Positions 38,352-41,659 of a DNA stretch of 64,000 bases are shown piece by piece; position 1 is the stretch's first letter, and each line of letters opens with the position of its first letter. Source of the DNA: a virus; the IMG/VR virus record IMGVR_UViG_3300021959_004274, positions 1-64,000 of that record. One strand, given 5' to 3'. Made by a program: the position numbers and the translations under genes. The notes under the pieces are model-generated. The model was not told the DNA's origin. It saw nothing but the letters and a program-made list of their open reading frames with translations, and searched no databases.

Positions 38352-38380
38352 ATTGTATAGTCCTGTTTAAGTTTTGTCAA
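38352..38380 (-). promoter_or_regulatory. Sigma70-type promoter
   Basis: TTGACA-17-TACAAT; ATG 6 nt downstream. Confidence 0.75.
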
Positions 38381-39837
38381 TCTTGCCACTCCGTTTTTTC
38401 TACCGTAAATGGATAGTTTGCTTCTCGATAAAATTGTTTACGTTTAGTTAAATGCCTTTTAGCAAATTTACAGGTTGATGTTATATCCCAAATTTGCACA
38501 AAATCTTTATCCTCAGCCTTTCTAATGCCTCGACCAATACTCTGAATAACCCGTACAAAACTTTTACCAGGCTCCACAAGCACCAAATTGAAAATCCGAG
38601 GAATGTTAATACCAACAGCGGCAACACCATAAGTAGCAACAATAACTCTATCGTCCATTGTGGCCACTTCGTCATAGGATTCCTTTCTATCATTTGCTTT
38701 AGTTCCTCCTGAAACAAACACTGATCCAGGTATAAGTTCTGTTAAACGTTTACCTGGTGCTATACGATCTACAAGAATAAGTGTATTGCCTGACTCTTTA
38801 ATTGAGTTAATTAGCCCAGCAATATACTTCATGCGGTCTTCTGTTTCTAGTAGATAACGTAATTCACTTTGATAATCTCTGTATTCAACGTGATCAACTA
38901 ACTGTACAATATTAACATGACAGTTTGCCAACACTCCTTCTTGCTGTAGTTCATTTGCACTCAGTCTACCAATAACCTCACCTAAACTACATTTCAAACT
39001 CATAAACTCATATTCTTCTTTGGGTACTGTACCAGTTAATCCCCAACGTATAGGAACATGTGACATTGGTCCTGTTAATAATGTTCTAAGTGCATCCGCT
39101 TTGGCCATGTGTACTTCATCTACCATGACACAGACTACGTCATGTAAAAACTCATCTATTGTGATATCAATATCTTTAGCACGAGTTTTCTTCATCATAA
39201 TGTTTAGACTCTGCCAAGTACAAATAGTATGTGTCTTGCCAAACTCTTTACGATCACCAAAGAACACACCTACGTCTAATCCCATGTTAATGTAATCTTC
39301 TTCAGTTTGCGTGACTAGACTTTTATTTGGAACAATAACTATTGTACGACCATGTGCTTCACATCTATGACTTAGCACAGCAGTGATTAAAGTTTTACCT
39401 GCACCTGTGGCTACTTCTTGTATGCACTGTGGATTTTCTAAGAACTTATTAACTATCTCAACTTGATAGTCACGTAACATGATTGGTTGGCCTTTAGCAG
39501 GATGGTTAGGTGGCCAAACATAGTCTGCATAACTATCTTCTTTAACTTTTTCAAATCCATAGTTAGTTGAATAGTCACGGATGTCTTCTAGTTCAATATC
39601 ATAATTAAACTCTTCTAATACAGGAATAATATCTGGCAATAGGTTAACATAAGTTGATCCACCTAGTTGAAAGAACCCTACCTTACCATCCCATCGTCCT
39701 AGTCTCACTGCTGGCATATATCTAGCACCTGGGACTTCGTATTTGAATTTATTGGTCAGCGTTTTACGAGCGTCAAGTTCAAGACCTTCAATCTTTACAT
39801 TAACTTCATCACGGACTATGATTTTACAATTTCGCAT
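38377..39837 (-). CDS. uvsW: SF2 DNA helicase UvsW
   Basis: LRDYQ, ATGAGKT, VDEVH, GLTGT, QSIGRGIR. Confidence 0.92.
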   Translation of the reverse strand: MRNCKIIVRDEVNVKIEGLELDARKTLTNKFKYEVPGARYMPAVRLGRWDGKVGFFQLGGSTYVNLLPDIIPVLEEFNYDIELEDIRDYSTNYGFEKVKEDSYADYVWPPNHPAKGQPIMLRDYQVEIVNKFLENPQCIQEVATGAGKTLITAVLSHRCEAHGRTIVIVPNKSLVTQTEEDYINMGLDVGVFFGDRKEFGKTHTICTWQSLNIMMKKTRAKDIDITIDEFLHDVVCVMVDEVHMAKADALRTLLTGPMSHVPIRWGLTGTVPKEEYEFMSLKCSLGEVIGRLSANELQQEGVLANCHVNIVQLVDHVEYRDYQSELRYLLETEDRMKYIAGLINSIKESGNTLILVDRIAPGKRLTELIPGSVFVSGGTKANDRKESYDEVATMDDRVIVATYGVAAVGINIPRIFNLVLVEPGKSFVRVIQSIGRGIRKAEDKDFVQIWDITSTCKFAKRHLTKRKQFYREANYPFTVEKTEWQD

Positions 39838-39863: not shown

Positions 39864-39895
39864 GAAAGGCACACTATTTTGGTAATGTGCCTTTC
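39864..39895 (-). terminator. Hairpin, probable terminator of the early unit
   Basis: 10-bp stem gaaaggcaca/tgtgcctttc followed by acctttt on the minus strand. Confidence 0.6.
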
Positions 39896-39897
39896 CA

Positions 39898-39937
39898 TAG
39901 TCAGTTAGAAAGTGTTAGGAGCGAAACTAACTGACTA
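39898..39937 (-). ncRNA. Candidate anti-RBS regulatory hairpin (3'-UTR sRNA)
   Basis: Perfect 11-bp stem. The 18-nt loop UUUCGCUCCUAACACUUU is complementary to the RBS of the genes starting at 41659 and 40754. Confidence 0.55.
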
Positions 39938-39941
39938 AAAA

Positions 39942-40754
39942 CTATGCCGCCCTGCGTTTCATACAAGTTACTTCTGCCATCTCACGCCAGTTGTTTTGTG
40001 ATACCTTGCGTAAGTCAGCAACTTTAAGGGCCATACGTAAACTTACTTCATTTAACTTCTCGCAGTTTTCTGTTAAGAAGTCTAAGATTTCTTCTTGCTG
40101 TATACCTGATAAATCATAATCTTTAAACAGAGCACCAGTACCAGCAATCTGTTTAATACGTAATAGTTTATCACGCATAGTGTCTAATGTCAAGTCTAAG
40201 TAGTGACATCTTGATTGAACTGCTTCTAAATGGTCTTGTAACTTTTTACTTTTAACATTGTTAAATTTAACGTTAGTGATAAAAATTGCTGAACCTTCAA
40301 AGTTAAATGTGTCAGGAACACCTTCGTTGCGTAGTTTGTATGAATCTGTGTTCCAGCATATCTTACGTGTCTTCTTACTATCAAGTGCGGCCTTAATAAT
40401 GTTCAATGATAATTCATCTTGTAACACTGAGTCGCAGTCGTCAAACACTAAAACATTATCTTTTTCTTTGTAGTTGAATAGTTTACAGTATAGACCAATA
40501 GCACTCATAGCACCTTTAACAACATCATATGGCTTTGGCCTAGATCCTAGTTCGCTGTATATTCCAGCTTTTTCTAACTGCTGTTCAACACCATATGATT
40601 TACCAACTCCTGGAGGGCCTACTACAATCATAGCTCTGATATCACCGTTGATGCAGGCTTTGGTCATTTCGTCTAGGATGTTGAATCTTTTGGAAATACG
40701 TTCGATGATTTGCTCATCTGTTTCTTTTGTAAATTTTATTGTCTTTGCTGACAT
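39942..40754 (-). CDS. AAA-family ATPase
   Basis: GPPGVGKS Walker A, VLVFDDCD Walker B, IFITN, SR. Confidence 0.85.
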   Translation of the reverse strand: MSAKTIKFTKETDEQIIERISKRFNILDEMTKACINGDIRAMIVVGPPGVGKSYGVEQQLEKAGIYSELGSRPKPYDVVKGAMSAIGLYCKLFNYKEKDNVLVFDDCDSVLQDELSLNIIKAALDSKKTRKICWNTDSYKLRNEGVPDTFNFEGSAIFITNVKFNNVKSKKLQDHLEAVQSRCHYLDLTLDTMRDKLLRIKQIAGTGALFKDYDLSGIQQEEILDFLTENCEKLNEVSLRMALKVADLRKVSQNNWREMAEVTCMKRRAA

Positions 40755-41347: not shown

Positions 41348-41659
41348 TTATCTATATAAGTGGCCTGAACCACAATTATTTTCTAAGTAATCAATGTCTT
41401 TATACAAGTTAAATCTAACCCCTTTTGCTGGTGCATTCCAACCTGCTGGTTTGTAAACGTCGCCTGTTGTTTTTTCAATAAAAGCAACAACGCTACGTGA
41501 TTCAAGTTCGCCGTTATCTTCAACATAACCGTCAACTATTTTAATATACTTGCGACCTTCTTGTGCGGCAAATCCTCTTTTTACGTGAGTGAGTCCTTGA
41601 CTATCAAAGTCACGTTGTAAACCTGCTATGTATCTGTCAATTAATTTGTTTAAGTCCAC
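41348..41659 (-). CDS. Hypothetical early protein
   Basis: GRKYIKI...SVVAFI...GDVYKPAGW.APAKGVR; GTG start with SD AGGAG. Confidence 0.8.
   Translation of the reverse strand: MDLNKLIDRYIAGLQRDFDSQGLTHVKRGFAAQEGRKYIKIVDGYVEDNGELESRSVVAFIEKTTGDVYKPAGWNAPAKGVRFNLYKDIDYLENNCGSGHLYR

Follow-up and report, generated by a model that had tools for sequence, protein, structure and literature searches.

Translational control in T4-type phages is, in the textbook picture, the work of proteins (RegA, RegB, gp32 and gp43) and of local hairpins. The local hairpins of T4 genes e, soc, 49 and I-TevI sequester the ribosome-binding site (RBS), and they are the only kind of RNA element listed in a review of post-transcriptional control (PMC3014915). 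T4-like phages also carry PeSL cassettes, which combine a stem-loop, a sigma70-like early promoter, a Shine-Dalgarno (SD) sequence and a start codon and which are repeated shuffling sites (Arbiol et al. 2010, PMC2839356; Comeau et al. 2014, PMC4122927). Among bacteria, the icaR mRNA of Staphylococcus aureus has a 3' untranslated region (3'UTR) that pairs with the SD of the same mRNA, which blocks formation of the initiation complex and creates a substrate for RNase III (Ruiz de los Mozos et al. 2013, PMC3868564). OppZ and CarZ of Vibrio cholerae are 3'UTR-derived sRNAs that pair with their parent transcripts and inhibit their translation in a negative feedback (Hoyos et al. 2020, PMC7398697). 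The Cuckoo/CcsR1-4 RNAs of the Alphaproteobacteria, finally, have variable stems and an anti-SD-like loop and are cut from a 3'UTR (PMC4615179, PMC8034643).

Here we describe a locus of an uncultured T4-like phage at which, in our view, the 3'UTR of an early transcript for an nrdC.10-type ATPase probably forms an anti-RBS module that would damp the translation of mRNAs carrying a matching RBS tag. We found no published description of an RBS/anti-RBS system at nrdC.10. The stretch of DNA analysed, hereafter the window, comprises 64,000 nt of IMG/VR record IMGVR_UViG_3300021959_004274, which has 92,187 bp in all and is a phage fragment estimated to be about 25% complete, with 36% G+C. A megablast search against 50,697 phage records gave no near relative, and in a distant blastn search of the window the helicase gene alone was matched. 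The 64-kb window has no tRNA genes (ARAGORN), nor does any Rfam family reach the gathering threshold anywhere in it.

The gene at the centre of the locus (39942-40754, minus strand) encodes a 270-aa AAA+ ATPase that matches phrog_1250 and is homologous to T4 NrdC.10. In Acinetobacter phage ZZ1 the homologue bears the annotation nrdC.10, the name of a T4 gene, and a PDB sequence search with the ATPase gave no meaningful match. The window protein is without an N-terminal extension of about 85 amino acids that is present in most relatives: most homologues (L029-L046 and most metagenome loci) are 333-358 aa long, against 268-275 aa in clade H, in the window clade and in the latter's sister clade. 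The window ORFs immediately upstream were considered as a source of the extension and rejected, having no similarity to it. The leader word ACAUAU-AAGGAGCGAAU-AUG is kept before long and short forms of the ATPase alike.

Upstream on the same strand lies the second tagged gene, which encodes a 103-aa DUF7717 protein and begins with GTG (41348-41659, minus strand). The initial annotation had placed strong sigma70 promoters ahead of both genes, and sigma70-like promoters are indeed there, at 40816-40788 for the ATPase (TTGACA-17-TATACT, 11/12) and at 41722-41694 for the DUF7717 gene (TTGACC-17-TATAGT with TG, 10/12), both on the minus strand. A consensus scan found no minus-strand terminator between the DUF7717 promoter and position 39895, and transcription from this promoter can therefore reach the 3' end used by the ATPase gene. 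The DUF7717 gene, two small ORFs and the ATPase gene can thus share one 3' end, which places the anti-RBS hairpin at the close of an early transcription unit. Farther upstream, at 41918-41890, there is another, perfect sigma70-type promoter (12/12), which drives a 45-aa ORF (41856-41719) with an ordinary AAGGAGAA RBS, and ahead of that promoter stands a strong hairpin with a T-run at about 41990-41960. The early unit closed by the anti-RBS hairpin may begin in the region 41990-41856.

On the other side of the ATPase gene, a UvsW-like helicase gene (38377-39837, minus strand) has its own promoter-like boxes right after the terminator and is context, outside the element. A TATAAT box (39843-39838) lies immediately before its ATG (39837), which is without a Shine-Dalgarno sequence; an alternative -10 box a few bases upstream would give a leader of a few nucleotides, so the helicase mRNA may be nearly leaderless. 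In clade G of the relatives described below, the ATG of the downstream gene lies about 6 nt or less past the terminator U-tract, with no promoter between.

The ATPase stop codon (TAG, 39944-39942, minus strand) is followed by four T and then by hairpin 1 (39937-39898). The stem of this hairpin is formed by TAGTCAGTTAG (39937-39927) and CTAACTGACTA (39908-39898) in 11 perfect pairs, and its open loop is the 18-nt TTTCGCTCCTAACACTTT (39926-39909), which reads UUUCGCUCCUAACACUUU as RNA. Hairpin 2 follows at 39895-39864, with 13 bp and a 6-nt loop and then ACCTTTTATA; it is terminator-like in a consensus scan, and together with its T-rich tail (39895-39854, minus strand) it would form the intrinsic-terminator-like end of the early unit. 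The first description of the locus, which had an 11-bp stem and an 18-nt loop 4 nt past the ATPase stop and then a terminator-like hairpin, agrees with ours in coordinates and in fold. The 106-nt 3' region has a minimum free energy of -32.7 kcal/mol (z = -6.4, 200 shuffles).

Within the loop lies the anti-RBS motif GUUUCGCUCCUAA (39927-39915, minus strand), with its core UUCGCUCCU at 39925-39917; the core complements the ATPase RBS, and the full 13 nt complement the DUF7717 RBS. The motif is predicted to be exposed, with an unpaired probability of 0.98. Opening the 9-mer would cost 0.08 kcal/mol; for the 13-mer, where the last stem base is included, the cost would be 3.3 kcal/mol.

Hairpin 1 was also considered as a plain intrinsic terminator and rejected, since its loop has 18 nt and the bases after it are UGG and then hairpin 2 instead of a U-tract; only hairpin 2 has the form of such a terminator. 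Likewise, a promoter-like site inside the ATPase gene (40193-40165) was discarded as the promoter of a separate sRNA. Its -35 box is not kept in close relatives, and thus no separate sRNA promoter is evident. A reading of the opposite strand, with AGGAGCGAA as the RBS of a plus-strand ORF, was rejected as well. The nearest ATG is about 19 nt off, the clade E and clade I sequences that were read have no equivalent ATG (L029, of clade G, has one 15 nt away), and the neighbouring genes and the terminator tail are all on the minus strand.

Both partners of the motif lie next to start codons. The ATPase RBS AGGAGCGAA (40764-40756, minus strand) is an SD with the private extension CGAA, 1 nt before the ATG at 40754, and it is the exact 9-nt complement of TTCGCTCCT (39925-39917). 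The DUF7717 RBS UUAGGAGCGAAAC (41672-41660, minus strand) abuts the GTG at 41659 and is the exact 13-nt complement of GTTTCGCTCCTAA (39927-39915), whose first G is the last stem base. The initial annotation had reported a 9-nt and a 13-nt complement at these two sites, and both matches are exact. The DUF7717 gene has a duplicated ATPase leader, 26 nt at 41687-41662 (minus strand) that are 96% identical to 40781-40755. The ATPase leader itself can form a weak hairpin (40772-40751, minus strand; arms ACAUAUU and AAUAUGU) with AAGGAGCG in the loop and the AUG in the 3' arm, and equivalent leader hairpins are found in several clades, not in all of them (arms GACAUA/UAUGUC, UUGCAU/AUGCAA and UCAUUU/AAAUGA). 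Since the leader hairpin would display AAGGAGCG in its loop, a loop-loop contact with the 3' hairpin is possible, and we mention it as a lead only. A pairing of CUAAC in the stem with GUUAG in the leader was given no weight, because GUUAG is a general start-of-transcript word that is also found in clades without this stem.

The match between tag and loop is highly specific within the phage genome. The sequence AGGAGCGAA occurs three times in the window, where 0.21 occurrences are expected and none of 100 shuffled sequences reached three, and in the whole 92,187-bp record its only three sites are the two RBSs and their complement in the loop. By arithmetic, about 0.02 chance 13-nt complements of the 20-nt loop region are expected in 92 kb. 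When the loop was set against 1547 start regions by duplex energy, the DUF7717 start ranked first (-22.1 kcal/mol) and the ATPase start sixth (-15.7 kcal/mol), the background of these start regions being -6.8 kcal/mol (sd 2.7). Among 77 heuristically called genes, nrdC.10 alone has a 9-nt complement of its own RBS in its own 3'UTR; the next gene has 7 nt and the rest have 6 or fewer. No further copy of hairpin 1 or of the ATPase 3'UTR was found in the 92-kb record. A search of the record for the tag at gene starts thus recovered the two RBSs first noted and no others, which points to a small unit and not to a general early regulon. The initial idea of an anti-RBS loop directed at early genes accordingly stands for the tagged RBSs, through the exposure of the loop and its covariation with them, and falls as a general early regulon.

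To follow the element through its relatives, the ATPase was searched in IMG/VR and in metagenome contigs, which gave 132 loci at 54-93% identity, the metagenome part being the best 80 of at least 576. At each locus the gene start and stop were located, and the leader and the 3' region were read. Across 133 related loci, with the metagenome part again the best 80 of at least 576, the nrdC.10 RBS and an exposed motif ahead of the terminator are complementary and change together clade by clade. Close relatives (L001-L007, L173, L175 and L176) keep the hairpin, the loop core and a AGGAGCGA RBS, and the tag is retained in clades at 63-93% protein identity. Distant clades (63-68% identity) have a hairpin at the same place, with 7-9-nt loops that contain CGCUCC and with an nrdC.10 RBS of AAGGAGCGAAUUAUG; their stems are wholly different, for example AUAGAUACUUAU..., GGAUAUAUAUAGU... 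and AGAUACUUUAGU....

The tag and anti-tag pairs read in this way are GGAGCGA with UCGCUCC, GGAGCUA with UAGCUCC, AGGAGCUA(A) with UAGCUCCU (the clade RBS being AAGGAGCUAA, with (G)UAGCUCCU), GAGCUAGA with UCUAGCUC, the RBS UAGGAGAGCUAGA with UCUAGCUCCU, GGAGAGAG(A) with CU-rich loops containing CUCUCUCC, CAGGAGCA with UGCUCCUG, GCUAGGAG-G-UCC (also given as GCUAGGAG-UCC) with GGA-CUCCUAGC, and GAGGGC with GCCCUC. The pair formed by the second position after GGAG goes through the states G:C, U:A and A:U, which match well-supported clades in an ATPase tree of 90 unique loci. The CU-loop clade has, in addition, compensatory changes in three of nine stem pairs. Since many of the sequences are related, locus counts overstate the number of independent events; the distinct compensatory switches number about six to eight. 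Several clades have an exact complement of no more than 6-8 nt.

The position of the motif is also kept. The motif or its hairpin lies 4-30 nt past the stop codon, and insertion of a small ORF behind nrdC.10 leaves the motif directly before the terminator, 135-355 nt past the stop. Such insertions between nrdC.10 and the motif were seen in L214, L226, L239, L240, L246, L196, L198 and L229, and in all of them motif and terminator have remained together, at the new 3' end; L196, L198 and L229 have an extra CU-rich hairpin right after the stop. In clade E the motif lies in a linker, not in a loop.

The clade that is sister to that of the window (82-88% identity; L008-L028 and others) lacks hairpin 1 and has only the terminator, with GGGGGUAA as the RBS, and the motif was not detectable in L185, L204, L221, L245 and L050-52. 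The nrdC.10 gene of T4 has the RBS GGAGAAUAAA, with no complement seen in its 3' region, and that of Acinetobacter phage ZZ1 has neither tag nor motif. The element, missing in some relatives and in T4, is therefore dispensable. The hairpin behind nrdC.10 in T4 (L253, NC_000866, 14262-14292, minus strand; GGCAGUUCAGAAAUAGA...CUGCC) resembles the terminator hairpins GGGCAGUUUAGAAAUAGACUGCCC of the marine CU-loop clade, for which the 3' regions of L194, L190 and L230 were compared. In L017 (996-1168; same contig as L178), tRNA genes for Tyr-GTA and Trp-CCA lie directly behind nrdC.10, at the place of the hairpin and terminator of other clades.

Two early targets had been claimed for the loop. One of them, the ATPase's own RBS, holds as the predicted conserved partner. 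The other, the DUF7717 RBS, is by the same comparison a lineage-specific extra target derived from duplication of the leader cassette, and a homologue was seen in L002 only, with an 11-nt match there versus 13 nt in the window. Neighbouring genes with the same tag are found in several clades. In L049 (922-3953 and 3781-3860), nrdC.10 is followed by two copies of UUCGCUCCC, one beginning at the stop codon and the other located in a hairpin loop. Promoter-leader cassettes of a similar kind precede GGAGCG(A/C) RBSs at five neighbouring genes; the nrdC.10 RBS of L049 itself (GCGGAGCUGAC) is a poor match.

In permutation tests, an RBS paired better with the 3'UTR of its own locus than with non-cognate ones. 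For 12 hand-picked clade representatives, a clade's own 3'UTR was the best for its own RBS in 10 cases, and none of 100,000 permutations reached the observed energy sum (p of about 1e-5). A set of 12 representatives chosen automatically, at 80% protein identity, with a 400-nt 3' region and with clades without the element included, gave a permutation p of 1.5e-4; fewer automatic representatives mean less power, with p = 0.012 for nine and p = 0.08 for six. The covariation of loop and target to which the initial annotation had pointed is present, clade by clade. Of the 90 unique loci, 63 have, within 400 nt past the stop, a complement that takes in the SD core and measures 6 nt or more, and at these 63 loci the mean unpaired probability is 0.79 for the motif versus 0.45 for the surrounding RNA. 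The tag is private: a 201-kb relative has AGGAGCGA at two sites, both of them in the nrdC.10 locus, relatives of 235 and 323 kb have it three to four times, and AGGAGCTA occurs three times in a 33-kb contig, as the RBS, as its 3'UTR complement and at one other site. At 111 unrelated IMG/VR sites with the same RBS, AAGGAGCGAATTATG, CGCTCC was not found once within 110 nt past the stop.

Tag and loop have thus changed together across more than 100 related aquatic phages and very probably pair, and we consider the anti-RBS pairing to be very probably real and under selection. That the pairing takes place in the cell, that it represses, whether in cis or in trans, and that it serves in timing is what we infer from these observations, and repression as the direction of effect is deduced only from the SD being covered. 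We suggest that hairpin 1, which precedes the terminator hairpin, presents in its loop the complement of an SD tag with a private extension, GGAG followed by CGA(A), and that this tag marks the RBS of the ATPase and, in the window lineage, also that of the DUF7717 gene by way of its copied leader. After transcription of the 3' end, the loop would base-pair with the tag and hide the SD and the spacer up to the start codon, whereby 30S binding would be blocked and the tagged genes damped. With SD and spacer covered, such a block is the simplest effect to expect; a duplex-specific RNase may also cut the paired region.

The module could act in cis on the full-length mRNA or in trans, by way of the mRNA or a 3' fragment. 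Because the anti-tag is made last, a transcript controlled in cis could be translated during its synthesis and damped when complete; in the trans alternative, 3' ends would accumulate and act on other tagged mRNAs. The predicted net duplex energy after opening costs is -11.3 kcal/mol for the ATPase and -14.8 kcal/mol for the DUF7717 gene, and canonical pairing with the 16S tail gives -8.4 and -7.2 kcal/mol, respectively. Since the own-RBS match has 9 nt and the canonical 16S tail also pairs with UAAGGAG, the ribosome could compete for the site. A small set of tagged genes would fit the longer DUF7717 match, the tagged neighbours in several clades and L049. Both tagged RBSs can lie on one transcript, however, and the small-set observations in the window therefore fit action in cis too.

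The same pairing could also have a positive effect, which we regard as unlikely. It might shield GGAG from a RegB-like, SD-specific endonuclease or from 5'-end-dependent decay, or it might loop the mRNA and hand terminating ribosomes back. The covariation evidence fits any functional pairing, and the hairpin or motif, at 4-30 nt past the stop, is within reach of terminating ribosomes; moreover, RegB cleavage of early SDs is established in T4-type phages (PMC3014915), and the hbs mRNA has a stabilising interaction between its 5' and 3'UTRs (PMC5737220). However, the pairing covers both SD and spacer, which is in itself a block to initiation. We know of no bacterial precedent for ribosome recycling through SD masking. 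The record, about 25% complete, has no match to RegB (PF10715), but control genomes were without a match too, and this result is thus uninformative.

It is very unlikely, we believe, that hairpin 1 is a protein-binding or processing signal, for NrdC.10, an RNA chaperone or an RNase, with incidental complementarity to the RBS. A conserved hairpin with a conserved loop beside a terminator would suit such a signal, and the small 5' leader hairpin could be an operator. A binding or processing site would be expected to have one loop sequence, however, whereas the loop observed shifts with the RBS tag, and always to its complement, and in clade E the motif is in the linker rather than in a loop.

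There is even less reason to think that the element is an inverted repeat at the DNA level, with the RBS cassette and an inverted partial copy of it flanking nrdC.10 as sites for recombination or shuffling of the PeSL kind or for a DNA-binding protein and held alike by gene conversion; only a slim chance can be given to this. Promoter-leader cassettes are duplicated in the window phage and in relatives, and PeSL cassettes, with their stem-loop, early promoter and SD, are known shuffling sites of T4-like phages (PMC4122927). Yet the shared stretch is only 6-13 nt long, is always centred on the SD and never includes the rest of the leader, and the motif lies in a loop or a linker framed by covarying RNA stems and stays beside the terminator despite ORF insertions. 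Furthermore, the 3'UTR is not repeated in the genome, and nrdC.10 was inverted relative to its neighbours at none of 133 loci, in the stretches read and with the metagenome part the best 80 of at least 576. The locus might, lastly, be no more than two normal terminal hairpins, with a C/U-rich loop that fits purine-rich RBSs by accident. CUCC words of the anti-SD type are short and frequent around terminators, and the 9-nt own-RBS match alone would not be significant genome-wide, but the genome specificity counts, the duplex ranks, the permutation tests and the covariation of the flanks beyond GGAG/CUCC, through three Watson-Crick pair types at the second tag position, make chance extremely improbable.

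We therefore return to the 3'UTR anti-RBS module that damps translation of tagged mRNAs. A more ambitious version of it, possible but on balance doubtful, is a family-wide circuit of aquatic T4-like phages in which an SD barcode of early mRNAs, in a 5' hairpin loop, would kiss an anti-barcode loop at the end of the nrdC.10 unit as soon as that end is transcribed, so that early synthesis would shut itself off with no protein repressor. Translation of an mRNA would then take place largely during its synthesis, and the two barcodes would co-evolve in the manner of lock and key. Even in its simpler form, a conserved long-range RNA-RNA control, backed by compensatory changes in more than 100 uncultured relatives from marine and fresh waters, would extend the picture of translational control in T4-type phages by a layer made of RNA alone. 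The relatives would also provide a natural series of at least six to eight matched tag/anti-tag pairs, which could serve as orthogonal translational switches, and NrdC.10, a widespread phage ATPase, would be singled out as a protein whose dose is tightly controlled by the phage.

Set beside the systems described at the outset, the putative element is a phage-borne form of a known kind of RNA control. Like the local hairpins of T4, it would put RNA structure on the SD and/or the AUG, and the predicted 5' leader hairpin of the window holds the AUG in its stem. Those hairpins are local to the initiation region, whereas the partner sequence in the window belongs to the 3' end of the transcript, at a distance of about 850 nt for the ATPase and 1.75 kb for the DUF7717 gene. 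The layout of a PeSL cassette is matched by hairpin 2 with the helicase promoter (39866-39838) and also by the promoter-leader cassettes at 40816-40755 and 41722-41660, which are duplicated once. However, PeSLs recur at many intergenic sites, their description includes no anti-SD loop or RBS pairing, and hairpin 1 with its 3'UTR is unrepeated in the 92-kb record.

The clade I relatives have CU-rich loops that are very similar to those of the Cuckoo RNAs. Cuckoo loops, however, carry one invariant motif, CCUCCUCCC, aimed at cellular mRNAs, whereas the phage loop varies by clade and tracks a private tag. Moreover, the phage has one loop-bearing hairpin (two in L049) where Cuckoo RNAs have two to four adjacent ones; the two are not homologous, and the window is without an Rfam match. 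With OppZ and CarZ, the phage element has in common its place in the 3'UTR, the use of its parent's intrinsic terminator (hairpin 2) and predicted pairing with its own parent's RBS, which in the phage is a computational result of complementarity, accessibility and covariation. OppZ and CarZ are set free by RNase E and work in trans through Hfq, and OppZ triggers Rho termination as well; the putative element described here is encoded by a phage and known from its sequence.

The icaR mRNA offers an analogue and not a homologue. There is no sequence relation between its motif, UCCCCUG, and the phage UUCGCUCCU, and the phage 3'UTR is short (about 90 nt), with the motif in a hairpin loop beside the terminator. 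In further contrast to icaR, the SD of the phage is privately extended, and throughout a virus family this extension covaries with the loop; a second gene bears the tag, and the system is at present a matter of sequence. What the two share is the central arrangement: a motif in the 3'UTR complements the SD region of the same mRNA, and in the phage both sites are bracketed by the promoter at 40816-40788 and the terminator at 39895-39864.
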